Assembly: GCF_016127575.1 (NCBI RefSeq)
Contig: NZ_CP066018.1
Span: 3,630,001 to 3,662,000 of the forward strand
Origin: Cupriavidus necator
GTDB taxonomy: Bacteria > Pseudomonadota > Gammaproteobacteria > Burkholderiales > Burkholderiaceae
Reading direction: 5' to 3'
Length of the DNA stretch: 32,000 nucleotides
The notes beneath the pieces are model-generated. The model did not search any database, was not told where the DNA came from, and was given only the letters and a program-made list of their open reading frames with translations. The first letter of the stretch is position 1; each line of letters starts with the position of its first letter. A program made the translations under genes and the position numbers. This document shows positions 772 through 29,244 of this stretch, piece after piece.

Positions 772-2163
772 TTAAATCGGGTACTGTGGCGCTCCGCCCT
801 GAATGGTCATCCATTGCCACTGGGAAATTCCTCCCAGTTGGCCGCTCCGCCAATGCTGGTGCCATTGCCAGACGCGCCGACGCCGCCGACCGGGTTGATG
901 ACCTCGTCGTTGACGGTCTGGTCGTTGATATGCAGCATGCCGGTACGCAGGCGTTCCCCAATGCGCAATGCCCGACCGACATTGCTGGAAACAATGCCCA
1001 TCGACAGCCCGTACTCGGTACGGTTGGCCAGCGCAATCGCTTCTTCATCCGTGTCGACGGCACCACCACGGCCACCGGCCCGAATATCTCTTCGCTGAAG
1101 GCCGGGCTATCCGGTGTCACGTCGCAACGATCCTGGCAACATTGTCGCGCTGGCCTTCATTGATCAACGGCCCGAGCGCGACGTCACCTTCAACGGGATC
1201 CCCGACCGTCAGGCTCGCGGCCTTGGCGGCCAGCTTCTCGACGAACCGGTCGTGAATGGCACGCTGTACCAGCACACGGTCGGTGGCCATGCAGATCTGG
1301 CCCTGGTGCAGGAAGCTACCCCAGGCGGTGTTTGCAACCGCGAGATCGAGATCGGCATCATCGAGGATAATCAGCGAATTCTTGCCGCCCAGCTCCAGCG
1401 AAACCTTCTTCAGGTGCCGGCCCGCGGCCTCCCCGACCTTGCGGCCAGCAGCCGTGGAGCCAGTGAACTGAATCATCGCCACATTTGGATCGGCCGTCAG
1501 CGCAGCACCGGCGGCACCATCGCCCGGCAGCACGTGCAGCGCGCAAGCCGGCAGGCCGGCGAGTTCAAACAGCCGCGCGACCACGAAGCCACCGCATACC
1601 GCCGTGCGGTGATCGGGCTTGAGCACCACCGCGTTGCCCAGCGCCAGCGCCAGCGCAGCGGCCCGCATCGCCAGGTAGAGCGGGAAATTGAACGGCGAGA
1701 TCACGCCGACTACGCCAAGCGGGCGCCGGCGTGCCAGCGACAGCCGCCCGGGCACGGAAGGCAATACCTCCCCGGCGGAGCGCGATGGCAGCCCTGCGGC
1801 TTCCTGCAGGACCTTGATGGTGATCGTGGTCTCGAACGCCGCCTTCGCTCGCGTGGAGCCGCCTTCGCGCACGATCCAGCCGACGATCTCATCGAAATGC
1901 GTCTCGGCAACTCGCACAGCCCTGCGCAGCACACCTGCTCGTTCTTCATAGTGCAGGTTGGCCCAGCCCGGCAATGCCTTCGCCGCGGCCTCGGCCGAAC
2001 TGGCAATCATCGAAGCATCGGCCATGCCGATACGCCCCAGTTCCCGGCCAGTAGCGGGCTCGATCACGCCGGTCGCGAAGCTGCCGGCCTGCCAGCGCCC
2101 GGTAAAGAGCTGGTCAGTCCAGATGCTCTTGTCGAGCAAGCCGGGGGAATGCGTGAGATTCAT
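772..2163 (-). pseudogene. NAD(P)-dependent aldehyde dehydrogenase, disrupted (internal deletion plus two frameshifts)
   Basis: ALDH homology is spread over several minus-strand frames. Frame 1117-2163 gives the N-terminal 348 aa with ELGGKN and GQICMA. The segment from 1120 reads VTPDSPAFSEEIFGPVAVVVP. The region ~830-1055 reads DTDEEAIALANRTEYGLSMGIVSS...HINDQTVNDE...NWEEF. The tail 772-826 reads QWQWMTIQGGAPQYPI-stop. About 45 codons are missing at ~1117-1120, and 1-nt frameshifts lie near 1053-1060 and 820-830. Confidence 0.85.
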
Positions 2164-2345: not shown

Positions 2346-2903
2346 TCAAACGCTCTTGCGTGAGCCCGCGCGCGTAGGCGCAGCCCTTTCGCCCCGCCGG
2401 TTGGCCGCACGATCCGACAGCCAGTTGACAACCTGCACCCCGTAGCTGGCCGGCGTCTTGTCATTGACGCGCTGAGAAAGGTCGGCCAGGGTATGCCGTT
2501 TCAGTTCCGCTCGCATAGCCTTCTCTGCAGCCTGCATGACAGCCTGAATCGAGCAGACGCCACGCGTCGCCCAACCCGGTGCGTCATCATTGAAGACGGC
2601 ACAGCGCCCGCGGATCTCGAGGCAGTCGAACAGCGGCTTCTCGCCATCGATCGCGACCACGACATCGTGAACGGTAATGTGGTTGGCGGGCCGCGCAAGC
2701 CGGAATCCGCCCTTGATGCCCTCAGTGGCAACTACCAGCTTAGCCTTGGCCAACTTGGTGAACAGCTTGGCCAGGAAATCGTGTGGAACGCCCTGAAGCT
2801 CAGCCAGATCACGGACACTCGCTTCTTCCACGGCCGACTGCGAATGCGTCAGGTACAGCAGGCAGTGGAGGCTGTATTCAACGCCTGTACTGATTTGGGA
2901 CAT
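2346..2903 (-). CDS. Rrf2-family transcriptional regulator
   Basis: 185 aa. The N-terminal wHTH is typical of Rrf2/IscR/NsrR (MSQISTGVEYSLHCLLYL...VRDLAELQGVPHDFLAKLFTKLAKAKLVVATEGIKGGFRLARP). Cys94, Cys101 and Cys117 form a C-X6-C-X15-C cluster region. Palindromic box A sits 5 nt upstream of the ATG. Confidence 0.9.
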   Translation of the reverse strand: MSQISTGVEYSLHCLLYLTHSQSAVEEASVRDLAELQGVPHDFLAKLFTKLAKAKLVVATEGIKGGFRLARPANHITVHDVVVAIDGEKPLFDCLEIRGRCAVFNDDAPGWATRGVCSIQAVMQAAEKAMRAELKRHTLADLSQRVNDKTPASYGVQVVNWLSDRAANRRGERAAPTRAGSRKSV

Positions 2904-2907
2904 GGCA

Positions 2908-2932
2908 TACTAGGACTTTGTGTATCGTAGTT
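2908..2932 (-). promoter_or_regulatory. Palindromic box A (TACTAGGA-N9-TCGTAGTT) at the Rrf2 gene start
   Basis: An 8-9-8 inverted repeat with 2 arm mismatches and the same core and 9-nt A/T-rich spacer as boxes B-F. It lies 5 nt upstream of the Rrf2 ATG (2901-2903). No SD sequence is visible, so the mRNA may be leaderless or short-leader. Confidence 0.55.
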
Positions 2933-3101
2933 GCAATGCTATACAACTTCCGTGGGGTCCGCAAGGCAAAGGACATGCCGTTGGCAGTCACGGCAACCGG
3001 ACCGATAACCGGCTTCCGGTCGCCCGGCGCCCGGTGCCTGGCTGGTGTGAGCGACAAGCCTCCTGATACGCACTGAAACACACCCGGCAGCAGGCACGCC
3101 G

Positions 3102-4592
3102 TCAGGATGGTTTCCGCTGCCCCCATCCGCCGCCGAGGCTGCGCACCAGCGACACCGTCGCCGCGGCACGCAAGCCTGCCACCGCATTGGCATCGCGCTG
3201 CGACTGCAGCACGGTGCGATCGGCGTCGATCACGGTCAGGTAGTCGACGGCACCGGCATCGTAGCGGCTGCGCGAGATGCCCTGGGCCCGTTTCGCGCCG
3301 GCCAGGGCGCCGTCGAGCGCCGTGGCCTGCTGGCTGAGCCAGCGCACATCGGCCAGGCCGTCCTCCACCTCACGGAATGCCGACAGCACTGTCTGCCGGT
3401 AGCGCGCCACGCTCTCCTCGTGCGCGGCGCGGGCGCCAGCAAGGCTTGATCGGTTGCGGCCACCGTCGAACACGGTCTGCGCCACCGTCGAACCGACCAG
3501 CGGACCCAGCAGCCATGTGCGCGACGACCACTTGAACAGGTTCGACAGGTCCGACGACTCGAAGCCGAACAGCGCCGTGAGCGAGATGCGCGGGAAAAAC
3601 ACCGCGCGGGCGATGCCGATGCGCGCATTGGCCGCCGCCATCTGGCGTTCCGCCGCCGCAATATCGGGCCGGCGCTCGAGCAGTTCCGACGGCAGCCCCG
3701 CCGGCACGGCCACCGGAGCGGTATCGAACGGCCGGGCGGCGAGTCCGAACTGCGCGGGCGCCACGCCGGTCAGTACGGCCAGTGCATGTTCCTGGTTGGC
3801 GCGGCGGCGCTCGATGCTGGCCAGGCCGGAGCGCGCCGCGCCTAGTTCGCTTTCGGCGCGGGCCGGATCCAGGTCGGTGGCCTCCCCTGCTTCGTACCGC
3901 GTGCGCAGCAGCGACAGCGCGCCCTCACGCAGCCTGATCGTCGCATTGAGCAGCTCGCGGTCACTGTCCAGGGTGCGCAGCGCGAAGTAGGCCTGCGCCA
4001 CGTCGGCCTGCAGCGCCAGCTGCACGGACCGGTACAGTTCCTCGGCACCCCGCTCGTCGGCGCGCGCGGCGTCCACGCTGCTGGCCACGCGGCCGAATAG
4101 GTCGAGTTCGTAGCTGGCGAATGCGCGGGCCTTGAGCACCGTCTGGGGCGCCACGCGCGCGCCATCGGGCAGCCCCTGCGAGGCGGCCGACGGCTGCGAG
4201 CGAGTCGGGTCCAGGCCCACGCTCAGTTGCGGATACCGCGCCGCCTCGGTGGCGCCGGTGAACGCACGCGCCTGCTTCAGGCGCGCCGCCGCCGCGGCCA
4301 GCTCCTGGTTGTGAACGTTGGCTGCATCGATCAGCCGGTCCAGATCGGCATCACCAAACAGCTTCCACCACTCACCGCGCTGCTGGCCTTCGTCCGGCGT
4401 GGCGGTCTTCCATTGCGCGCTCTCGGCCGCGGCGGCCTCGGCTTCCTTGAACGTGGAGGCACTGGGTGTCTCCGGCACCTTGTAGGTCGGCGCCAGCGAG
4501 CAGCCGGCCAGGAGCAGCGCGGCCGCCATGGCCGCAAGCCTTGGCACGTTCCGCTTCGTCGCATCGCTAATGTTATGCATGTCTTTCACCAT
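3102..4592 (-). CDS. RND efflux outer-membrane factor lipoprotein, NodT family (OprN/OpcM-like)
   Basis: The start is taken at MVKDMHNISD...AAMAAALLLAGCSLAPTYKVPE (lipobox LAGC). The ATG shares one base with the stop of the upstream RND gene (TAATG at 4590-4594). The longer 636-aa track ORF is an artefactual 5' extension into the RND gene. Confidence 0.9.
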   Translation of the reverse strand: MVKDMHNISDATKRNVPRLAAMAAALLLAGCSLAPTYKVPETPSASTFKEAEAAAAESAQWKTATPDEGQQRGEWWKLFGDADLDRLIDAANVHNQELAAAAARLKQARAFTGATEAARYPQLSVGLDPTRSQPSAASQGLPDGARVAPQTVLKARAFASYELDLFGRVASSVDAARADERGAEELYRSVQLALQADVAQAYFALRTLDSDRELLNATIRLREGALSLLRTRYEAGEATDLDPARAESELGAARSGLASIERRRANQEHALAVLTGVAPAQFGLAARPFDTAPVAVPAGLPSELLERRPDIAAAERQMAAANARIGIARAVFFPRISLTALFGFESSDLSNLFKWSSRTWLLGPLVGSTVAQTVFDGGRNRSSLAGARAAHEESVARYRQTVLSAFREVEDGLADVRWLSQQATALDGALAGAKRAQGISRSRYDAGAVDYLTVIDADRTVLQSQRDANAVAGLRAAATVSLVRSLGGGWGQRKPS

Positions 4593-7500
4593 TACTCTGC
4601 GGACGCCACGGCGTGCGCGACCTTTGCATCCGTCGACACCGCCGCGCGGCGCTGGCCGCGCGTGGCCAGCAGGCGCAACGCCACATAGAACACCGGCGTC
4701 AGGAACAGTCCGAAGAAGGTCACGCCGAGCATCCCCGCGAACACCGCCACCCCCATGGCCTGGCGCATTTCCGCGCCGGCGCCGCTCGACACCACCAACG
4801 GCACCACGCCCATGATGAAGGCGAACGAGGTCATCAGGATCGGACGCAAGCGCAGGCGGCTGGCCTCGATCGCGGCCTCGACCACGGTGCGGCCGTGATG
4901 CTCCAGCTCGCGCGCGAACTCGACGATCAGGATCGCGTTCTTGGCCGATAGCCCCACCAGCACGATGAAGCCGATCTGCGTGAAGATGTTGTTGTCCCCT
5001 TGCGTCAGCCATACGCCCGTCATGGCAGCCAGCAGGCTCGTCGGCACGATCAGGATCACGGCCAGCGGCAGCGTCAGGCTCTCATACTGGGCAGCCAGCA
5101 CCAGGAACACCAGCAGCACGCACAGCGGGAAGATCCACACACCCGCGTTGCCGGCCAGGATGTCCTGGTAGGTCAGCTCGGTCCATTCGAAGCCGATGCC
5201 CTTCGGCAGGGTTTCGGCAGCGATGCGCTCGGCGGCAGCCTGCGCCTGGCCCGACGAGAAGCCCAGCGCCGGGCCGCCATTCAGGTCGGCGGCAGTGAAG
5301 CCGTTGTAGCGGATCACGCTGTCCGGGCCAAAGCCTTGCTTGACCTGCACCAGCGACGACAGCGGCACCATCTCGCCGCTGGCGCTGCGCGCCTTCAGCT
5401 GCAGGATATCCTCGGCATGCTGGCGGTACTGCGCATCTGCCTGCACCTTGACCTGGTAGGTACGGCCAAACTTGTTGAAGTCGTTGACGTAGGCCGAACC
5501 CAGGTAGGTCTGCAGCGTATCGAACACATCGGTCACCGGCACGCCGAGCTGCTTGGCCTTGGTACGGTCGAGCTGCACATCAAGCTGCGGCACGTTCACC
5601 TGGTAGTTGCTGAAGATGCCGGCAAGCTCAGGCGTGGCGCGCGCCTTGGTCATGAACGAGTTGGTGGCGTCGAACAGGGCGTCATAGCCCAGTGCGGCGC
5701 GGTCCTCGATCATCAGCTTGAAACCGCCGATCGTGCCCAGGTCCTGCACCGGCGGCGGCGGGAACACGGCAATGAACGCGTCCTGGATCGCGCCATACTC
5801 CTTGTTCAGGTCCGCGGCAATGGCCTTGCCCGACAGCTCCTTGCTCTTGCGCTTCTCGAACGGGTCAAGCGTGACAAAGACGATGCCGGCGCTCGGGCTG
5901 TTGGTGAAGCCGTTGATCGACAGGCCCGGGTAGGCAACGGCCGATTCCACGCCCGGATGCTTGAGCGCGATCTCCGACATGCGGCGCGTCACGTCCTCGG
6001 TGCGATCCAACGTAGCGCCGTCGGGCAGCTTGGCAAAGCTCACCAGGTACTGCTTGTCCTGCGCCGGCACGAAGCCCTTCGGCACGAGCTGGAACACGCC
6101 CCAGGCGGCCACCAGCATCACGGCGTAGACGCCAAATACCGAGCCCTTGCGGCGGATCACACCCTTCACGCCACGGCCATAGCTTTCGGAGCTGCGGCCG
6201 AAGAAGCGGTTGAAGCGGACGAAGAACTTGCCGAGGACCTTGTCCATGCCACGCGTCAGCCAGTCCTTGGGCGCGTCATGGCTCTTGAGCAGCAGGGCCG
6301 ACAGCGCGGGAGACAGCGTCAGCGAGTTGAAGGCCGAGATGATGGTCGAGATCGAGATGGTCAGCGCGAACTGCTTGTAGAACTGGCCGGTCAGGCCCGT
6401 CATGAAGGCCAGCGGCACGAACACAGCGATCAGCGTCAGCGCGATGGCGATGATGGGGCCGCTGACTTCGCGCATGGCCTTGTAGGTGGCCTCCTTCGGC
6501 GTCAGCCCCTCTTCGATGTTCCGCTCGACGTTCTCGACCACCACGATGGCATCGTCGACCACGATACCGATGGCCAGCACCAGCCCAAATAGCGACAGCG
6601 CATTGATCGAGAAGCCGAACGCATGCATCAGCCCGAAGGTACCGACAATCGACACCGGCACCGCCAGCAGCGGGATGATCGACGCGCGCCACGTCTGCAG
6701 GAACAGGATCACCACCAGCACCACCAGCACGATCGCCTCGAACAGCGTGTGGACCACCGCCTCGATGCTGTGGCGCACGAACTGCGTGGGGTCATAGACG
6801 ATGCTGTAGGCCACGCCTTCCGGCATGTTCTGCTTCAGCTCGGCCATGGTCTTGCGCACCTCGTTCGAGATCTCGATCGCGTTCGCCCCCGGTGACTGGA
6901 AGATCAGCAGTGACAGGGCGGACTTGTTGTCCAGCTGCGAACGCAGCGCGTATTCCGAAGCACCCAGTTCGATGCGCGCAATGTCCTTCAGGTACGTGAC
7001 CACACCGTCAGGCGAGGTCTTGGCGATGATGTCGCCGAACTCTTCCACGGTCTGCAGCCGGCCCTGCGCGTTCACCGACAGCTGCAGGTCGGTGCCCGGC
7101 AGCGTCGGCGACTGGCCGAGCACGCCTGCCGCCACCTGCACGTTCTGCTCGCGGATGGCGCGCACCACGTCCGACGCGGCGAGCCCGCGCTCGGCGATCT
7201 TCTCCGGATTCAGCCACACTCGCATCGAGTAGTCACCCGCGCCGAACAACCGCACCTGGCCGACGCCCTGGATCCGCGCGATGCGGTCCTTCACGTTGAT
7301 CAGCGCGTAGTTGCGCAGATAGGTCGTGTCATAGCGGTCGTTGGGCGAGACCAGGTGCACCACCATGGTCAGGTCGGGCGAACTCTTGACCGTGGTGATG
7401 CCCAGGCGGCGCACATCTTCCGGCAGGCGCGGCTCGGCCTGCGAGACACGGTTCTGCACGAGCTGCTGGGCCTTGTCCGGATCGGTGCCCAGCTTGAAGG

Positions 7501-7783
7501 TCACCGTCAGCGTCAGCGTGCCGTCGGTATTCGCCTGCGAGTTCATGTAGAGCATGTCCTCGACGCCGTTGATCTGCTCTTCCAGCGGCGTGGCCACGGT
7601 TTCGGCGATCACCTTAGGGTTGGCGCCCGGGAACTGCGCGCGCACCACCACTGACGGCGGCACCACTTCCGGGTACTCCGAGACCGGCAAATTGAACATC
7701 GAGATGGCGCCGATCAGGAAGATCAGCACCGACAGCACGCCCGCGAAGATCGGGCGGTCGACAAAAAATTTCGAGAAATTCAT
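4592..7783 (-). CDS. RND multidrug efflux permease, HAE1 family (MexF/BpeF/CeoB-like)
   Basis: 1063 aa, uninterrupted. The N-terminus MNFSKFFVDRPIFAGVLSVLIFLIGAISMFNLPVSEYPEVVPPSVVVRAQFPGANPKVIAETVATPLEE closely follows MexF-type pumps as I remember them. It shows the 12-TM AcrB-like architecture. Confidence 0.95.
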   Translation of the reverse strand: MNFSKFFVDRPIFAGVLSVLIFLIGAISMFNLPVSEYPEVVPPSVVVRAQFPGANPKVIAETVATPLEEQINGVEDMLYMNSQANTDGTLTLTVTFKLGTDPDKAQQLVQNRVSQAEPRLPEDVRRLGITTVKSSPDLTMVVHLVSPNDRYDTTYLRNYALINVKDRIARIQGVGQVRLFGAGDYSMRVWLNPEKIAERGLAASDVVRAIREQNVQVAAGVLGQSPTLPGTDLQLSVNAQGRLQTVEEFGDIIAKTSPDGVVTYLKDIARIELGASEYALRSQLDNKSALSLLIFQSPGANAIEISNEVRKTMAELKQNMPEGVAYSIVYDPTQFVRHSIEAVVHTLFEAIVLVVLVVILFLQTWRASIIPLLAVPVSIVGTFGLMHAFGFSINALSLFGLVLAIGIVVDDAIVVVENVERNIEEGLTPKEATYKAMREVSGPIIAIALTLIAVFVPLAFMTGLTGQFYKQFALTISISTIISAFNSLTLSPALSALLLKSHDAPKDWLTRGMDKVLGKFFVRFNRFFGRSSESYGRGVKGVIRRKGSVFGVYAVMLVAAWGVFQLVPKGFVPAQDKQYLVSFAKLPDGATLDRTEDVTRRMSEIALKHPGVESAVAYPGLSINGFTNSPSAGIVFVTLDPFEKRKSKELSGKAIAADLNKEYGAIQDAFIAVFPPPPVQDLGTIGGFKLMIEDRAALGYDALFDATNSFMTKARATPELAGIFSNYQVNVPQLDVQLDRTKAKQLGVPVTDVFDTLQTYLGSAYVNDFNKFGRTYQVKVQADAQYRQHAEDILQLKARSASGEMVPLSSLVQVKQGFGPDSVIRYNGFTAADLNGGPALGFSSGQAQAAAERIAAETLPKGIGFEWTELTYQDILAGNAGVWIFPLCVLLVFLVLAAQYESLTLPLAVILIVPTSLLAAMTGVWLTQGDNNIFTQIGFIVLVGLSAKNAILIVEFARELEHHGRTVVEAAIEASRLRLRPILMTSFAFIMGVVPLVVSSGAGAEMRQAMGVAVFAGMLGVTFFGLFLTPVFYVALRLLATRGQRRAAVSTDAKVAHAVASAE

Positions 7784-7885
7784 CTTGGTCTCGGCGAAAG
7801 CAGTCCCCGCTGGCGGTCCGCCGGAGCGGACGCCAGTGCAATCTCAGGGGAGAATTCCAGTTCGGTCTGTGGCGGAGGGTGGGAC

Positions 7886-9127
7886 TCAGCTCATCCTGGC
7901 CTTTCCGGCCTTCGCGTCAGCTGCGGCCTGCTTGCGATCCGTCGTGCTGCCACGCGACTCCAGTTCGCTGCGGTAGGCCATCGCTACCGGCTTCGGGGTC
8001 ACGGTGTCGCCGGGGCGCACGCGCGTCAGGCCATTCACGACGATGTTCTCGCCCGGTCGCAGACCCTTGCGGATCACACGCAGCCCTTCGTACGTCGGCC
8101 CCAGTTCGACTTCGCGGTACGCGAGCTTGTTGGCCTTTTCCACCAGGAGCACGAACTTCTTGCCCTGGTCGGTGCCTATGGCGCGATCGTTGACCAGCGC
8201 GGCGGGATATGGCGAGCCGCCGCCGAGCTTGACCTTCGCGTACAGGCCCGGCAGCAGGCGGCGGTCCTCATTGTCGAAGACGGCGCGCACGCGGATCGTA
8301 CCGCTGCGCGTGTCGAGCCGGTTGTCGATCGAATGAATCCGGCCCTTGTGCGGATTGCCATCCTCGTTGGCCAGGCCCAGGAATACCGGCAGGTCTCCCT
8401 TGCCGCCACCAGCGCCCGGCGTCGTGTAGCGCAGGTAGCTCTGCTCGTCGACATCGAAGCTCGCGTACACCGGCGAGACCGATACCACCGTGGTCAGCGG
8501 CGGCGATGCCGCGCCGGCCGCCACAAGGTTTCCCACCGTGATCTCGGCACGCGACACCCGGCCCGTGACCGGTGCAACGACGCGCGTGTAGCCCAGGTTC
8601 AGCTTCGCCACCTCCAGCGCCGCCTGCGCACCACGGACGTCGGCCGACGTCTCGCTGGCCGCGTTGATGCGCTCATCGAACTCGCGGCGCGAGATCGCGT
8701 TATCGTCGAGCAGGCGTTGCGCGCGCGCCTTCTCGGTCTGTGCATGCGATGCACGTACCTGCGCCGCTGCCAGTACCGCCTCGGCGCGCGCCACTTCGGC
8801 CGCATACGAGCGCGGATCGATCGTGAACAGCGGGTCGCCCTTCGTCACGATCGAGCCATCGCGGAAATGCACCGTTTCGATCGCGCCGGACACACGTGGA
8901 CGGATCTCAACACGATCCACAGCCTCGATGCGGCCCGAGAATTCATCCCATTCGGTGATGATGGTCTGGCCCACCACTGCCGCCACTTCCACCGCCGGGG
9001 TCGGCGGCGGCATGGTCGCCTGTGCTTCCCCGCCGTGCCAGGGACGCAGTACCGAGGCTGCCACGCCGGCCCCCAGGATTGCCACGAAGGCAATGGCGAG
9101 CAGTGTGTGTCGAGACTTGCGATTCAT
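7886..9127 (-). CDS. RND efflux periplasmic adaptor (MFP, MexE-like)
   Basis: 413 aa with an N-terminal membrane anchor, coiled-coil hairpin and beta-barrel regions typical of the HlyD/AcrA family. A GGAG RBS lies 8 nt upstream. It is the first gene of the MFP-RND-OMF operon. Confidence 0.9.
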   Translation of the reverse strand: MNRKSRHTLLAIAFVAILGAGVAASVLRPWHGGEAQATMPPPTPAVEVAAVVGQTIITEWDEFSGRIEAVDRVEIRPRVSGAIETVHFRDGSIVTKGDPLFTIDPRSYAAEVARAEAVLAAAQVRASHAQTEKARAQRLLDDNAISRREFDERINAASETSADVRGAQAALEVAKLNLGYTRVVAPVTGRVSRAEITVGNLVAAGAASPPLTTVVSVSPVYASFDVDEQSYLRYTTPGAGGGKGDLPVFLGLANEDGNPHKGRIHSIDNRLDTRSGTIRVRAVFDNEDRRLLPGLYAKVKLGGGSPYPAALVNDRAIGTDQGKKFVLLVEKANKLAYREVELGPTYEGLRVIRKGLRPGENIVVNGLTRVRPGDTVTPKPVAMAYRSELESRGSTTDRKQAAADAKAGKARMS

Positions 9128-9200: not shown

Positions 9201-9243
9201 GCGACCCATAACTACGATTATATTAGTCGTAGTTATGGGTCGC
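9201..9243 (-). promoter_or_regulatory. Palindromic box B, perfect 17-9-17, overlapping a sigma70-like promoter of the efflux operon
   Basis: GCGACCCATAACTACGA-TTATATTAG-TCGTAGTTATGGGTCGC, with perfectly complementary arms. On the minus strand the -35 is TTGCGA (9240-9245). A 17-nt spacer follows, then -10 TATAAT (9217-9222). The box lies 75 nt upstream of the MFP start. Confidence 0.75.
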
Positions 9244-9428
9244 AAGATATTTCTTGATCGAGCAACGTTGTCCACCTGCATGTGCAGCGGTGAGATCGTG
9301 TCGCGGGCGTTGTATGAAGTTGAGCCGACAACCTCCGCGTCGTCTTTCTGCGGCCGACCGGGGCCGGTGCGCGCGTCCAGCCCATCACGCCGGATCTGGC
9401 GAAGCGGCTTCGGAGGTTGCGCGGATGC

Positions 9429-10988: not shown

Positions 10989-11007
10989 TTCATGATTGCT
11001 AGCGCTG

Positions 11008-12219
11008 TCAGGCCACTACCACATAGTGCGGATCGGCCCAAGCCAGCGCCTCGGCACGGTCAGCACTTGGCGGATAGATCCACTCGGTGTTGATCTGCGT
11101 CTTCAGTGCCTTGGCTTCTGCGCCCACCAGCTTCACCTGACGATCCCAGCCTTCGGTGTATACAGCCCCCCACGACCCGAGATCCAAGCAGGTGACATAT
11201 TTCGGCTGGCTGTAAGGAATCGGCGTTGCCCCCAGGAGGTCCGCCGCCACATTATGTCCTGCAATCCGGCCCAGCTTCATCGCGTGCTGACAGGACATCG
11301 CGGCGTGGTTGCCTTCCTCATCGGTGGACGCGTAGGCAACGTCACCAGTAGCGTAGACCGTATCGATGCCTTTGACCTTCAGGTTGCGATCGACATGGAG
11401 CCGCCCGAAGTTGTCGCGCTGCGCAGGAATCTGCGACGTCAGCGCACTGGCGCGCGCGCCGGCGGTCCAGATTACCGTGTCTGTCTCGATGCGCTGACCG
11501 TTCTCGAGCGTAACGCCGTTCGCATCGACCGCCGCGACGCCGGAGCCGAGCTTCCATGTCACACCGAGCTCAGTCAGCGCCTCGGTAATCACCGGACGCG
11601 GGCCGGGACCCAGATCCGGGCCAACGTCGCTGTTGCGCTCAACCATAATCACGTTCACGGCAGCGTCCTTGCCGAACACCTCGCGTAGACGGGCAGGCAT
11701 TTCCGCTGCGGTCTCGATACCGGTGAAGCCGGCACCGGCGATCACTACCGTGTTGCGCGCTACGCTTTCGGGACGACGCGCCAGGCTGGCGAGATGCGCA
11801 TCAAGCGCTGCGGCATCAGCCACCTGGTCTACATTGAACGAATGCTGCTCGAGACCCGGAATCTGCGGCCGGAACAGGCGGCTACCAGCGGCAAGGACCA
11901 GGCGGTCATAGCCGAGCTTACGGCGCGACGTATCGCCACCCAGCCCCACAAGTTCCACTTTCTGGCTTACCACATCAATGCGTTCGACCAGGCCCTGGAT
12001 GAACCTGACGCCCACAGCCTGAAAGATTTCCTGCAGCGGCGCCCTCATGCCGCCTGGGTTCTTCTCATAAAGACGCGGACGCACGTGCAGCTCGGGCTCC
12101 GGCGCGACCAGTACGATCTCCACGTCAGTGCGCCCCACTTCATCCAGAAGGCGGGCCGAACCCAGCGCGCTCCACATGCCGGCGAAGCCGGCACCAATAA
12201 CAACAATACGTTTCGACAT
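11008..12219 (-). CDS. NAD(P)/FAD-dependent oxidoreductase, NDH-2 (type II NADH dehydrogenase)-like, copy 1
   Basis: 403 aa with two Rossmann motifs (VVIGAGFAG and VVIAGAGFTGIETAAEM) and ATGDVAY...QHAMKLGRIAGHNVA. An AGGAG RBS is present. It is a paralogue of 13196-14407. Confidence 0.9.
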   Translation of the reverse strand: MSKRIVVIGAGFAGMWSALGSARLLDEVGRTDVEIVLVAPEPELHVRPRLYEKNPGGMRAPLQEIFQAVGVRFIQGLVERIDVVSQKVELVGLGGDTSRRKLGYDRLVLAAGSRLFRPQIPGLEQHSFNVDQVADAAALDAHLASLARRPESVARNTVVIAGAGFTGIETAAEMPARLREVFGKDAAVNVIMVERNSDVGPDLGPGPRPVITEALTELGVTWKLGSGVAAVDANGVTLENGQRIETDTVIWTAGARASALTSQIPAQRDNFGRLHVDRNLKVKGIDTVYATGDVAYASTDEEGNHAAMSCQHAMKLGRIAGHNVAADLLGATPIPYSQPKYVTCLDLGSWGAVYTEGWDRQVKLVGAEAKALKTQINTEWIYPPSADRAEALAWADPHYVVVA

Positions 12220-12302
12220 GCTTCATGCTCCTGAATCAATGCTCGGTTTCGCGTGACCGGCGAACTCCACAGTTGGCGTATCAGCCTGATCAGCCAGGCG
12301 GC

Positions 12303-12345
12303 GCCCACCGTAACTACGATTGTAATAGTCGTAGTTACGGTGGGC
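12303..12345 (-). promoter_or_regulatory. Palindromic box C1, perfect 17-9-17, overlapping the promoter of NDH-2-like gene 1
   Basis: GCCCACCGTAACTACGA-TTGTAATAG-TCGTAGTTACGGTGGGC. On the minus strand the -35 is TTGCCC (12342-12347). A 17-nt spacer follows, then -10 TACAAT (12319-12324). An A5 tract lies just upstream of the -35. Confidence 0.75.
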
Positions 12346-12442
12346 AAGATTTTTCCGCGACGCCAAGGTCGCGACATTCTCTTGTGCCATCTCGTGCGCT
12401 TTTCACCTGCGCCTTGCACTTCAATCATGTATCGACTATCTT

Positions 12443-12467
12443 TACTACGACTATTGTAATCGTAGTA
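12443..12467 (+). promoter_or_regulatory. Palindromic box C2 (TACTACGA-CTATTGTAA-TCGTAGTA), perfect 8-9-8
   Basis: It shares the core of the other boxes. The box plus ~45 nt upstream (TTGCACTTC...ATCGACTATCTTTACTACGACTAT) is homologous to the box F cassette at 29190-29244. No intact gene follows it on the + strand. Confidence 0.6.
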
Positions 12468-12950: not shown

Positions 12951-12967
12951 CTGGTGGGCCGGCGCTT

Positions 12968-12992
12968 AACTGCGATTCATGTAGTCTCAGTA
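12968..12992 (-). promoter_or_regulatory. Degenerate palindromic box F' (AACTGCGA-N9-TCTCAGTA) upstream of the cupin remnant
   Basis: The reverse complement of 12964-13027 aligns with the box F cassette (TTGCACTTC...GATC...GTTACT..GACTA..TGA.CG.AGTTAA.GC). The arms are 6/8 self-complementary and the spacer is 9 nt. Confidence 0.45.
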
Positions 12993-13066
12993 ACAATTGT
13001 GGATTGATCGCTGAAGTGCAAGCCACTCGTGCAGGTCAGCTGGTAGCAGTTGGTAAAAAAAAACTT

Positions 13067-13109
13067 GCATCGCTTAACTACGACTACTATGATCGCAGTT
13101 AAGCGATGC
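13067..13109 (+). promoter_or_regulatory. Palindromic box D, 17-9-17 (1 mismatch), overlapping the promoter of NDH-2-like gene 2
   Basis: GCATCGCTTAACTACGA-CTACTATGA-TCGCAGTTAAGCGATGC. The -35 is TTGCAT (13065-13070). A 17-nt spacer follows, then -10 TATGAT (13088-13093). An A9 tract (13055-13063) lies just upstream of the -35. Confidence 0.75.
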
Positions 13110-13195
13110 GAACGAGCGCTCGCTGTTTCGATCGGGCGCGCTACGCCGCGGCGGAGTCGGCCTGTTACTTGAGATTTGGTTCAGGAGTATGAAAG

Positions 13196-14407
13196 ATGTC
13201 CAAACGGATTCTTGTCATTGGCGCCGGCTTTGCCGGCATGTGGAGCGCGCTGGCTTCGGCCCGTTTGCTTGACCAGGTTGGGCGCACCGATGTGGAGATC
13301 GCCCTTGTCGCACCGAAGCCGGAACTGCACATCCGCCCTCGCCTCTACGAGCAGAATCCGAACGGGATGAAGGCGCCGTTGCAGGACATCTTCCAGGCCG
13401 TTGGCGTCAGGTTCATCCAGGGCAAGGTGGAGCACATCGATGTCGCAAACCAGACGGTGAGCGTTGCGGGCGTTGGCGCTGATACGCCGCGCCAGCGCAT
13501 CAGCTATGACCGTCTGGTGCTTGCTGCAGGAAGCCGCCTGTTCCGGCCGCAGATCCCAGGGCTGGACCAGCATGCCTTCAATGTCGACCAGGTCGCTGAC
13601 GCCGCGGAGCTTGAAGCCCATATCCATGGACTGGCCGACCGCCGGGAGAGCGCCGGCCGCAATACGGTGGTAATCGCGGGTGCCGGCTTTACCGGTATCG
13701 AGACGGCTGCCGAAATGCCGGCTCGCCTCCGCGAAGTCCTGGGCGAGGACGCTGCCGTGAGCGTGATCATGGTCGAGCGAAATGCCGCGATCGGCCCTGA
13801 CCTGGGCGAGGGTCCGCGGCCGGTCATCACGCAGGCGCTGGCCGAGCTTGGGGTGACATGGAAGCTCGGCTCGGGTGTCGCGGCTGTCGATGCGAAAGGC
13901 GTCATGCTCGAGAATGGGGAGCGCATCGAGGCAGACACCGTGATCTGGACGGCGGGCGCCCGGGCCAACGAACTCACCGCACAGATTCCGGCAGAGCGGG
14001 ACAACTTTGGCCGGCTGCATGTTGACCGCAACCTGAAGGTCAAGGGGGTCGAGGCGGTGTTCGCCACCGGCGACTGCGCCTATGCCGCGACCGATGACGA
14101 AGGCAACTTCGCCACCATGTCTTGCCAGCACGCCATGAATCTGGGCCGCTCGGCCGGCCACAACGTGGCAGCAGACCTGGTGGGCGCGGCGCCAATCCCT
14201 TACAGCCAGCCGAAGTACGTGACCTGCCTGGACCTGGGGCCCTGGGGCGCTGTCTACACGGAAGGCTGGAACCGCCAGGTGAAGATGACGGGCGGCGTCG
14301 CCAAGGCGCTGAAGACGCGGATCAATACCGAGTGGATCTATCCTCCGAGCGCGAATCGTGAAGAAGCGCTTGCCTTGGCTGACCCACGGTTCATCGTCGT
14401 GGCCTGA
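13196..14407 (+). CDS. NAD(P)/FAD-dependent oxidoreductase, NDH-2-like, copy 2
   Basis: 403 aa, the same length as copy 1. By eye roughly four-fifths of residues are identical. It has a homologous RBS context (TTCAGGAGTATGAAAG-ATG) and a homologous terminator hairpin. Confidence 0.9.
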   Translation: MSKRILVIGAGFAGMWSALASARLLDQVGRTDVEIALVAPKPELHIRPRLYEQNPNGMKAPLQDIFQAVGVRFIQGKVEHIDVANQTVSVAGVGADTPRQRISYDRLVLAAGSRLFRPQIPGLDQHAFNVDQVADAAELEAHIHGLADRRESAGRNTVVIAGAGFTGIETAAEMPARLREVLGEDAAVSVIMVERNAAIGPDLGEGPRPVITQALAELGVTWKLGSGVAAVDAKGVMLENGERIEADTVIWTAGARANELTAQIPAERDNFGRLHVDRNLKVKGVEAVFATGDCAYAATDDEGNFATMSCQHAMNLGRSAGHNVAADLVGAAPIPYSQPKYVTCLDLGPWGAVYTEGWNRQVKMTGGVAKALKTRINTEWIYPPSANREEALALADPRFIVVA

Positions 14408-14427
14408 GGGCGCGAGGCAAAAAGGCA

Positions 14428-14462: not shown

Positions 14463-15030
14463 GTACGCCCAGCATGGGCGCACTCTCGTGGGTGTAAGTC
14501 CCACCGTAAGTTGATCACAGCGGACGAAGCGAAGCGCAACTGCGAAAGGGTGACCGATCGTGGGGAGGAGCGCGAGCGAAGCTGCGAGCCGAGGAACACG
14601 AACCGGATAGAAGGCGGTGCCGACCAGAACGAGCGGGCAAAGCTTCGCGAAGTTCTCGCGATCAAGGGGAGGCGGCGTATATCCGGCGGTTGTGCAGTGA
14701 AGGAGTACGTTCTTACCTGGGGAGATCTCGCCTCATGCCTGAACGGGCAACGGCGTCGAGCCGGAGCGAGAAGTCGGCAGAGGTCGAAGTAGTCGGAGGG
14801 GTAGGGCTCAAGACCGCCGATGAAGGACCGAGCGAAAGGGAGTGTTCGAAGCCGTGTCGATGCAGCAGGCATCGCGTCAGAAGCCCGCGCGAGCGGGGCG
14901 AGCGAAGGAAACGGACGGTGAAACCGGCCGGGAACTCGCTTGCGACGAAGCCTGCGGCCTGCGACGCGAACCAGAGAGCACAGGGTCGGCGCCGCTTGCA
15001 GCGGCGCTGACGCGAGATAACCTGGGTAGT
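14463..15030 (+). mobile_element. Group II intron, 5' ribozyme portion only (class C-like); RT ORF and domains V/VI absent
   Basis: It begins GTACGCCCAGCATGGGCGCACTCTCGTGGGTGTAAGTCCCACCGTAAG. It also contains GAGGAACACGAAC, GTTCTTACCTGGGGAG and GAGAAGTCGGCAGAGGTCGAAGTAGTC. These align with the 5' end and domain I-III landmarks of the Oceanobacillus iheyensis IIC intron as I recall it. There is no reverse transcriptase frame downstream, and homology gives way to a minus-strand recombinase fragment near 15030. Confidence 0.8.
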
Positions 15031-15821: not shown

Positions 15822-16465
15822 ATGAGCGTTACTACATAGGGCATTGACCTCGCCAAGAATATCTCCCAGGTCCACGGCGTGAACGAGCACGGCAAGTCCG
15901 TATCGAAGAAGCAGCTAAAGCGACATCAGATGGCGACGTTCTTTGCAAACCCTTCCGCCGAGTCTGGTTGGCATGGAAGCCTGCGGTGGGGCCCACTTCT
16001 GGGCACGCAAGCTGCAGGCGCTCGGCCACACGGTGCGGCTCATGGCTCCCCAGTTCGTCAAGCCCTATGTGAAGACGAATAAGAACGACATGGCCGATGC
16101 GGAAGCGATTTGCGAAGCCGTGGCGCGGCCGAATATGCGGTTCGTGCCCATCAAGAACGTCGACCAGCAAGCGGTTCTTGCGCTACACCGCGCCCGTCAG
16201 GGGTTCGTGCGGGCCCGCACTGCGCAGGCGAATCAGATTCGCGGGCTGCTCGGGGAATTCAGTCTCGTGATCCCACGGGGTATCACGAGCATTGCCCAAC
16301 ATGTGCCGCAGCTCATCGAAGACGCCACAAATGAACTGCCAGGCTCGTTCCGTTTGTTGGTACAGCGCTTGATCGATCATCTAAAGGAACTCGATCGACA
16401 GGTCGAAGAGCTCGAGATGCAGATCAAGGCTTGGCATCACGCGAATGACGCCAGCCGGAGGTTGG
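15822..16465 (+). pseudogene. IS110-family transposase, N-terminal (DEDD) half, with premature stop and frameshift
   Basis: MSVTT-stop(TAG 15837-15839)-GIDLAKNISQVHGVNEHGKSVSKKQLKRHQMATFFAN. A +1 shift near 15950 leads into LPPSLVGMEACGGAHFWARKLQALGHTVRLMAPQFVKPYVKTNKNDMADAEAICEA...KAWHHANDASRRLA. A GGAGG RBS is present. Confidence 0.85.
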
Positions 16466-16684
16466 CTCGTGCTCCGTGGACCATCAGCGTGCGCAAGTAC
16501 GTGTCACCGCGCTTGGTAATGCCGAGCAGCAACGGTTTGCCTCCGCTCGAATGCTGCCTCGGCACCAAGCCTAGCCATGCCGTCAATTGCCGAGCGTTGC
16601 TGAAGCACTTGCCATCCCCGATCGAAGCAACAAGGGCACTGGCCGTGATCGGGCCGATCCCGGGAATCTCTGCGCGCGAGGCGC
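16466..16684 (-). pseudogene. IS110-family transposase, C-terminal-domain segment in inverted orientation
   Basis: The minus-strand translation is ASRAEIPGIGPITASALVASIGDGKCFSNARQLTAWLGLVPRQHSSGGKPLLLGITKRGDTYLRTLMVHGARAN (Transposase_20-type motif). It abuts the N-terminal half head-on at ~16465 and the stop codon of the thioredoxin-like gene at 16685. Confidence 0.8.
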
Positions 16685-17227
16685 CTACTTGCGTTGCGCT
16701 AGCAGCTTGCGGATGGTGTCCTCGGTTTCGGCGTAGCTGCCCTCGCCATAGTGTTTGTACACGATGCGGCCATTGGCATCGATCAGGTAGAGGGCGGGCC
16801 AGTACTGGTTGCTAAAGGCCGACCAGGTCGCATAGGCATTGTCCTGGGCGACCGGATAGCGGATATCGAAGCGCCTGATCGCCGCCTGCACGTTGGCGGT
16901 CGATTTCTCGAACGGGAATTCTGGCGTGTGGACGCCCACCACGACCAGGCCCTGATCCTTGTACTTGTCGTGCCACTGCTTCACGTATGGCAGCGTGTTG
17001 ATGCAGTTGCCGCAGGCATAGGTCCAGAAGTCGACCAGCACGACTTTACCGCGCAGGCCCTCCATGGACAGCGGCGGCGAGTTCAGCCACTGATGGATCC
17101 CCGTGAACTCGGGCGCGCGGCCCTGATCGCCAACGGTCGGGGCGAGGCCTCGCTGGCCGAAAACGGCAATGCCGACTGCCGCGATCAGCAGCCCTATCGG
17201 TACGAGGCGGTATAACTTCGTGCGCAT
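16685..17227 (-). CDS. TlpA/redoxin-like membrane-anchored thioredoxin (thiol:disulfide oxidoreductase)
   Basis: The start is taken at MRTKLYRLVPIGLLIAAVGIAVFG (TM anchor). The CxxC motif is WTYACGNC. It is similar to the thioredoxin domain of the adjacent DipZ. The 307-aa track ORF is a 5' over-extension. Confidence 0.85.
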   Translation of the reverse strand: MRTKLYRLVPIGLLIAAVGIAVFGQRGLAPTVGDQGRAPEFTGIHQWLNSPPLSMEGLRGKVVLVDFWTYACGNCINTLPYVKQWHDKYKDQGLVVVGVHTPEFPFEKSTANVQAAIRRFDIRYPVAQDNAYATWSAFSNQYWPALYLIDANGRIVYKHYGEGSYAETEDTIRKLLAQRK

Positions 17228-26311: not shown

Positions 26312-29008
<2,697 letters not shown>

Positions 29009-29048: not shown

Positions 29049-29083
29049 GCGATAACTACGACTTTACAAGTCTTAGTTATCGC
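29049..29083 (-). promoter_or_regulatory. Palindromic box E (13-9-13, 1 mismatch) upstream of aceE
   Basis: GCGATAACTACGA-CTTTACAAG-TCTTAGTTATCGC, lying 41-75 nt upstream of the aceE GTG. The promoter hexamers are less canonical than at boxes B, C1 and D. Confidence 0.65.
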
Positions 29084-29217
29084 GGAGACTTCAGGGCAAA
29101 CCATGGGCTGTTCATGTCTGGCACTTGACGGGAAACAGAGCTGCAAGATCTTTTCCCGATGCTTGTCTCGGCGCAGTCCATGTGCTCGCTTGCACTTCGA
29201 TGGACGATCGACTATCG

Positions 29218-29244
29218 TTACTACGACTATAATGATCGTAGTTA
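29218..29244 (+). promoter_or_regulatory. Palindromic box F (TTACTACGA-CTATAATGA-TCGTAGTTA) upstream of the cupin operon
   Basis: The core arms are 7 bp perfect. A perfect TATAAT (29228-29233) sits inside the 9-nt spacer. A GGAG RBS (29253-29256) and the ATG at 29263 follow. Confidence 0.7.

Follow-up and report, generated by a model that had tools for sequence, protein, structure and literature searches.

Promoters and palindromes in the window

This locus raises the question of what function three long palindromes (B, C1 and D) might have in a stretch of 32,000 nucleotides of the Cupriavidus necator genome (contig NZ_CP066018.1, positions 3,630,001 to 3,662,000; referred to as the window), where each of them coincides with a putative core promoter. 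The original prediction regarded the arrangement as a fixed promoter design with the geometry of a repressed promoter, and argued against a role of the palindromes in RNA. Direct reading confirmed every coordinate of the common layout, which consists of an A-tract, TTGCnn, 17 bp and TAnnAT in B, C1 and D (Table 1). It was likewise confirmed that in all three sites the final 4 nt of the -35 hexamer are the opening 4 nt of the palindrome arm, and that the -10 hexamer is composed of the spacer positions 5-9 and the first T of the far arm. If the transcription start is assumed about 7 nt past the -10 hexamer, it would lie inside the far arm in B, C1 and D.

Based on the analyses described below, the palindromes very probably contain the operator of a repressor encoded in the window: a conserved 27-bp box within them would be bound by an RsrR-type regulator of the Rrf2 family, and a sigma-70-type promoter would be superimposed on this box at all three sites.

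According to the sequence reading, the -35 and -10 hexamers are present at a distance of 17 ± 1 bp and conserved, and the candidate operator overlaps the region from -35 to +1, since the box of B, C1 and D encloses the -10 hexamer. With only 3-4 of 6 consensus matches for TTGCnn, the -35 hexamers are weak. An independent consensus scan recovered the promoters of B (10/12 matches) and C1 (9/12 matches) and missed that of D because TTGCAT scores only 3/6.

The conserved unit common to all sites is the 27-bp box TAACTACGA-N9-TCGTAGTTA. Its core was matched five times in the window with up to 3 mismatches, compared to no match in 100 shuffles. With at most 1 mismatch allowed in 14 core bases, seven sites were detected in the 7.4-Mb genome (A, B, C1, C2, D, F and E), all seven of them inside the window and within 27 kb around the rrf2 gene. 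A convincing pair of -35 and -10 hexamers was looked for at box F in front of the E1-like gene and none was found. An F-type box in another genome (G024, locus L031) has perfect 17-bp arms. A search against Rfam at gathering thresholds returned no RNA family at the boxes, the group II intron domain being the only match.

Table 1. Boxes, putative promoters, palindromes and genes in the window with their positions
Feature	Position	Strand	Description
Rrf2-family regulator gene (rrf2)	2346-2903	-	185 aa; candidate repressor; Pfam PF02082 Rrf2, 1.3e-31; TIGR00738 above cut-off
A	2907-2964	-	class II, at rrf2 promoter: TTGCGG 2964-2959, 17 nt, TAGCAT 2941-2936, 4 nt, box core 2931-2909
MexE/MexF/OprN-like RND efflux operon	3102-9127	-	predicted target of B
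B promoter	9201-9245	-	upstream AAGAAATATC; TTGCGA 9245-9240, 17 nt, TATAAT 9222-9217
B palindrome	9201-9243	-	arms 17/17; box 9209-9235; 5' of MexE-like adaptor gene
NDH-2-like flavoenzyme a	11008-12219	-	predicted target of C1; 80% identity to b
C1 promoter	12303-12347	-	upstream GGAAAAATC; TTGCCC 12347-12342, 17 nt, TACAAT 12324-12319
C1 palindrome	12303-12345	-	arms 17/17; box 12311-12337; 5' of NDH-2-like gene a
C2	12414-12468	+	class II: TTGCAC 12414-12419, 17 nt, TATCTT 12437-12442, then box (core 12444-12466) at predicted start; divergent from C1
F'	12967-12993	-	eighth box; decayed class II box with 3 core mismatches; divergent partner of D, 107 bp off
D A9 tract	13055-13063	+	directly 5' of the D -35 hexamer
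D core promoter	13065-13093	+	TTGCAT 13065-13070, 17 nt, TATGAT 13088-13093; direct reading; register also in genus orthologs
D palindrome	13067-13109	+	arms 13067-13083 and 13093-13109, 16/17 complementary; 9-nt spacer CTACTATGA; 27-bp box 13075-13101
NDH-2-like flavoenzyme b	13196-14407	+	predicted target of D; Pfam Pyr_redox_2; best solved relative NDH-2 4NWZ, 2e-29
Group II intron domain	14544-14711	+	Rfam RF02001, 101.8 bits; just 3' of NDH-2-like gene b
IS110-family transposase ORF	15943-16815	+	near NDH-2-like gene b
Pyruvate dehydrogenase E1-like gene	26312-29008	-	898 aa; behind F
F	29053-29079	-	core 29055-29077; 45 nt 5' of E1-like gene start
E	29190-29244	+	class II: TTGCAC 29190-29195, 17 nt, TATCGT 29213-29218, box 29218-29244 (core 29220-29242); 5' of small secreted protein, cupin and AhpD-like genes
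Aldehyde dehydrogenase ORF	1117-2163	-	matches profile positions 10-325 of 461 only

A candidate regulator of the RsrR type

The candidate repressor is predicted to adopt the Rrf2 winged-helix fold according to its Pfam and TIGR00738 matches. Among proteins of solved structure it is closest to RsrR from Streptomyces venezuelae (6HSD, E 6e-24), compared to 3e-7 for NsrR and about 1e-7 to 1e-6 for NsrR and IscR together, and it scores far under the cut-offs of both the NsrR and the IscR NCBIfam models. The residues E9, H13, C94 and C117 align with the Glu, the His and two Cys of RsrR in 6HSD, the residue numbering of RsrR reportedly being that of Volbeda 2019, and do not vary among 9 orthologs with identities as low as 53%. 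In the same orthologs a third cysteine, C101, is likewise invariant, as is a tyrosine (Tyr10) in the place of the RsrR switch residue Trp9; compared with RsrR, the protein may thus hold another type of cluster and respond to another signal. In RsrR the [2Fe-2S] cluster is held by two Cys of one subunit and by an N-terminal Glu and His of the other (PMC8204329, PMC11138216), and Trp9 acts as the switch residue (PMC11138216).

Box A ends 5 nt 5' of the rrf2 start codon ATG, and, judging from the sequence, a box coincides with the predicted rrf2 start site both here and in 13 orthologs, which points to an autoregulatory site. The predicted rrf2 leader (2903-2936, minus strand) comprises about 26 nt and is nearly all operator. 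The ATG is not preceded by a clear Shine-Dalgarno sequence, which is also the case in the orthologs.

The box accompanies the gene beyond C. necator. All 12 loci encoding an Rrf2 ortholog, which derive from Cupriavidus, Thauera, Burkholderia, Rugamonas and one deltaproteobacterial MAG, carry the box, and in 11 of the 12 it ends 2-5 nt before the rrf2 ATG. In a survey of 78 Cupriavidus genomes (box with at most 1 mismatch in 16 bases; gene with E of at most 1e-30) box and rrf2 were both detected in 32 genomes and both missing in 43, while one genome had only the box and two had only the gene; thus, the box was present in 33 and the gene in 34 of the genomes. The box-only genome (G085) contains an atypical site, and the two gene-only genomes (G022 and G005) both have boxes with 2 mismatches. 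The box is absent from all 16 genomes examined from other families of the order. The match between box and gene is nearly perfect over a patchy distribution in the genus, in which related genomes are not independent.

Several observations support the repressor geometry suggested by the original prediction: the window contains a candidate RsrR-type Rrf2 gene with a box at its own promoter, box and gene co-occur among the 78 genomes, and, as described in the following section, the hexamers and the A-tract are fixed relative to the box across the genus and position 9 of the spacer is asymmetric. No paper dealing with this regulon emerged when the literature was searched for start-site maps of C. 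necator and for Rrf2 proteins of Cupriavidus or Ralstonia.

Two promoter layouts in the genus

About 85 unique boxes with their flanks were collected from the genus. Many of the conserved sites are orthologous, so that the following counts are not independent and overstate the number of separate cases. We distinguished two layouts. Class I was defined by TTG located 16-18 bp 5' of a TAnnnT which is made of the spacer positions 5-9 plus T, and was found in 36-42 of the approximately 85 boxes, with a rough chance expectation of <1% per box. Class II was defined by TTGCnn, 17 bp and TAnnnT followed after 1-5 nt by the box, and was found in 34 boxes, where the box covers about -7 or -4 to +20 or +23. 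In the window, B, C1 and D belong to class I, and A, C2 and E to class II.

Across the genus the layout tracks the downstream gene. Class I promoters precede NDH-2-like genes in 32 sites and MexE-like genes in 3 sites, and class II promoters precede rrf2 in 13 sites and genes encoding the small protein, cupin or AhpD in 17 sites.

Alignment of 27 class I sites revealed that the base before TTG is an invariant C, the element thus reading CTTGC, and that the columns 5' of the -35 hexamer are A-rich (0.5 to 1.8 bits) at about -46 to -38. The proximal UP subsite of E. coli is located at about -46 to -38, and judging from the E. coli consensus the A9 stretch of D and the A-tracts of the other sites may represent a proximal UP-element subsite. 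In class I the TA and the T of the -10 hexamer are constant and CTTG(C) and the A-tract highly conserved, with neighbouring columns at about 0 bits. A -35 element reading CTTGC occurs in nearly all promoters of the regulon, in class I as well as in class II, which may be due to common descent or to a preference of the host polymerase.

The A-tract, the preceding C and spacer position 9 are columns that were not used for defining the classes, and they speak for the promoter reading. Spacer position 9 is A in 35 of 36 class I boxes and G in 25 of 34 class II boxes. A G in this position makes the box symmetric (ACGACT...AGTCGT), whereas an A results in TAnnAT; judging from these sequences, class I promoters appear to trade one operator base pair for a better -10 hexamer. 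Such a trade-off is hard to explain unless the operator and the promoter readings are both real. Furthermore, the -35 hexamer, the -10 hexamer and the A-tract are fixed relative to the box across the genus despite diverged surrounding sequence, which shows that they are under constraint.

Proposed mode of regulation

If the start is again assumed about 7 nt past the -10 hexamer, the box of a class I promoter would be centred on the first base of this hexamer and extend from about -25 to +1. The -10 hexamer would occupy the centre-right of the box, and the -35 hexamer would be located 17 bp upstream, just outside the left half-site, and be preceded by an A-tract fitting the proximal UP subsite. 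An Rrf2 dimer bound to the box would exclude RNA polymerase. Class II boxes, at about -7 or -4 to +20 or +23, would serve rrf2 itself, as autoregulation, and the cupin/AhpD operon. By analogy with RsrR it would be the oxidised [2Fe-2S] form that binds and represses, and reduction or loss of the cluster would derepress two NDH-2-like enzymes, the MexEF-like pump, the E1-like gene and the cupin/AhpD operon. In this scheme we infer the start sites, the binding by the Rrf2 protein, the direction of regulation and the signal.

What appears to be new here is the candidate operator of the Rrf2/RsrR type over a sigma-70 promoter; repression through overlapping operators as such is already well known. 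The scheme provides a wiring diagram for an unstudied regulon of C. necator, whose strain H16 is in wide use in biotechnology. In it, a single RsrR-like iron-sulfur repressor would govern two NDH-2-like NADH-oxidising flavoenzymes, a MexEF-type pump, an E1-like gene and detoxification genes, and this would offer a first handle on RsrR-type regulators beyond the actinomycetes. As tight repressible modules of about 60 bp, the promoters could moreover serve as genetic parts.

Comparison with known systems

RsrR of S. venezuelae (Sven6563) represses rsrR and its divergent neighbour at the rsrR-nmrA promoters via 11-3-11 inverted repeats which overlap the polymerase site, and the oxidised protein is the one that binds DNA (PMC5015018); the candidate regulator in the window would resemble it in having an autoregulated operator that overlaps the polymerase site. 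Like the box, the rsrR operator forms an inverted repeat of some 25-27 bp, and the two have C-10, R+4, T+5 and G+10 in common (PMC9338935 Table 2); of the operator bases listed (C-10, C-8, R+4, T+5, G+10) four of five match, position -8 being A here. The 27-bp inverted repeat of the box reads 11-5-11 in symmetric sites. The targets of RsrR are linked to NAD(P)H metabolism, as are the predicted ones in the window. However, the RsrR of an actinomycete and the betaproteobacterial regulator described here share only about 40% identity. RsrR has 630 bound sites whereas the regulon in the window is compact and local with 7-8 boxes, and its predicted targets, unlike those of RsrR, include an RND efflux pump. 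The candidate regulator in the window furthermore differs from RsrR by the Tyr in place of Trp9 and by the third invariant Cys.

It is established that operators of NsrR and IscR overlap the -10 hexamer or the start. NsrR (at hmp) and IscR (at its type 1 sites at iscR) are Rrf2 dimers which repress via inverted repeats of 23-29 bp with an AT-rich centre overlapping the -10 or the start (PMC9338935), but their half-site sequence differs from that of the box. SoxR at soxS is likewise a [2Fe-2S] redox sensor, which holds for the regulator described here by analogy, and acts on a palindrome inside a core promoter. It has, however, a MerR fold and activates by DNA distortion at a 19-bp spacer, as opposed to the Rrf2 fold and the 17-bp spacer found here.

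Efflux pumps of the MexEF-OprN type respond to electrophilic or redox stress. They are controlled by the LysR-type regulators MexT and BpeT, and the pump in the window is MexE/MexF-like based on a match to NF045904 that is under the cut-off of this model. Unlike in the pumps controlled by MexT or BpeT, a candidate Rrf2 operator lies over the pump promoter, and no adjacent LysR activator was seen.

Alternative explanations

Instead of being operators the palindromes could be RNA or DNA hairpins, such as a terminator, a processing or stability element or a cruciform, with merely incidental promoter-like hexamers. For the three 43-nt palindromes as RNA, very stable folds of -26 to -32 kcal/mol are indeed predicted, with z-scores between -7.6 and -9.6, and their outer 8 bp differ among B, C1 and D, yet are self-complementary in each of them. 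Between D and its ortholog in G003 three compensated pairs and no uncompensated change were observed, the opposite strand of C1 and D continues from the stem into AAG and a T-run and scored terminator-like, and both arms could be transcribed by read-through from upstream units. We nevertheless consider this reading highly improbable: conservation does not extend to the stems, they do not coincide with the end of any gene, and the conserved asymmetry of the spacer is oriented according to the gene that follows. In close relatives the same promoters occur without long stems, with arms of 9-12 bp in the B orthologs, and all 8 outer pairs are formed in only 5 of 42 class I sites; it is the half-site of 9-11 bp and the hexamers that are conserved and not the pairing. 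The A-tract is also kept at sites with a short stem, a gene for a DNA-binding protein accompanies the boxes, and the "terminator" on the opposite strand faces no gene. The earlier argument against an RNA hairpin, namely that the transcript would not contain both arms, holds for transcripts starting at the B, C1 and D promoters, and it is strengthened by the lack of long stems at the same promoters in close relatives. An intrinsic terminator was considered separately and rejected: on the promoter strand the stem is not followed by a T-run, the T-run on the opposite strand ends no gene and the stems of the relatives are short.

Activation by the Rrf2 protein from a position between the -35 and -10 hexamers, as by regulators of the SoxR/MerR type, seems equally improbable. 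It would agree with the location of the palindrome between and over the hexamers, with the weak -35 elements and with SoxR being a [2Fe-2S] redox sensor as well, and RsrR has been suggested to be both activator and repressor depending on the site position (PMC5015018). It fails, however, because of the 17-bp spacer and the positions of the class II boxes: the spacer has the optimal length (16-18 bp across the genus) and not the overlong 19-20 bp that MerR-type regulators need, and class II boxes at +1 to +23 could only hinder transcription. Moreover, the centre of the box is on the -10 hexamer itself and not in the spacer, and the protein has an Rrf2 and not a MerR fold. Least probable of all is a REP- or MITE-like origin, with the 43-bp palindromes as copies of a small element, mobile or repetitive, that happens to include an outward promoter. 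Several copies within one region, the IS110-family transposase and the group II intron nearby, and the resemblance of the B box and its right flank to NDH-2-type promoters of other strains, which suggests a copied promoter module, could be taken in its favour. A mobile repeat was rejected because no further copy exists elsewhere in the 7.4 Mb genome; the outer arms also differ between the copies, the distances from the gene starts are fixed, the boxes co-occur with the regulator in 32 genomes, and C1 and D were duplicated along with their genes.

The outer arms of the palindromes

With the box regarded as the operator of an Rrf2 repressor, the perfect pairing of the outer 8 bp is left over, for which repressor binding does not account. 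The claim that the 17-bp arm belongs to the conserved design did not hold, since the outer 8 bp are completely paired in just five class I sites out of 42. Complete pairing is confined to B, C1 and D and to the D orthologs in G060 and G003. In a control in which the left flank of one site was paired with the right flank of another, 8/8 pairs occurred in 0.2% of the cases, and the remaining class I sites follow this control distribution.

The B orthologs in four genomes (G077, G072, G061 and G024), the Rrf2 proteins of which share 93-98% identity with that in the window, have arms of only 9-12 bp. Compared to them, the left arm of B differs by a cluster of adjacent changes (GCGCTTTATA -> GCGACCCATA) and the right side by a 12-nt deletion which creates TATGGGTCGC. 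B would accordingly seem, from this comparison of sequences, to have reached the perfect-arm state recently via clustered changes on both arms. In the B orthologs L057, L061 and L038 (of G077, G072 and G061, respectively) a second hairpin (GGCATGTCGG...CCGATATGCC) opens the pump leader right after the box; in the window its left half is removed by the 12-nt deletion. The D site and its G003 ortholog show three differences in the outer arms, 3/3 compensated and none uncompensated, compared to about 8% difference in the flanking leader. Between C1 and D, 5 of the 8 outer positions are different, but the pairing is perfect in both.

Template switching at quasi-palindromes is a known process. Both arm-to-arm templated mutation and selection for pairing fit the outer arms. 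The absence of the extension in close relatives speaks against long-term selection of the pairing, and the fact that the three class I sites of the genome are all perfect and all stop at the GC of TTGC speaks against pure chance. One tentative suggestion, which we regard as rather doubtful, is that selection acts on the perfect 17-bp arms themselves, or that the two arms of an operator often convert each other and thereby stay identical. If the arms were selected, the 43-bp palindrome, whose AT-rich centre contains the -10 hexamer, could modulate the repressor affinity or form an extruded cruciform, and supercoiling would thereby be coupled to a redox-controlled promoter. If they were not selected, the operators would be natural examples of palindrome growth by template switching. 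The compensated and site-specific outer arms represent a small natural data set on the growth and upkeep of operator palindromes.

In a C1 ortholog (L051; G009:C2:301663) the right flank mirrors the left one as far as CTTGC (CCTTGCGGCACCGTAACT, other strand) with an offset of one base. Either the palindrome once reached past the -35 hexamer at this site, or the promoter is a two-way promoter.

Origin of the promoter module and its genomic neighbourhood

The window contains an inverted duplication (10999-12244 and 13171-14416, 77% identity), and each duplicate retains two divergent boxes, one of class I and one of class II, at a distance of about 105-130 bp (C1|C2 and F'|D). The same arrangement of divergent class I and class II boxes is seen across the genus. 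Since C1 and D are paralogous copies resulting from this duplication, B, C1 and D represent at most two origins. The box of B together with its right flank (TCGTAGTTATGGGTCG) resembles the NDH-2-type promoters of other strains, so that the pump operon may have captured a copy of an NDH-2 promoter module. The design common to B, C1 and D thus reflects common descent in part. The proposal of a fixed promoter design therefore requires qualification: its register does recur across the genus, but C1 and D are paralogous and the 17-bp arms lie outside the conserved design. Between C2 and F', the 500 bp of sequence resemble what is left of two facing cupin operons after decay.

The region with the group II intron domain and the IS110-family transposase, both located in the vicinity of NDH-2-like gene b, possibly forms a mobile island; this would agree with the patchy occurrence of the regulon among Cupriavidus genomes. 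The aldehyde dehydrogenase ORF, which covers its profile only in part (Table 1), may be truncated or frameshifted.
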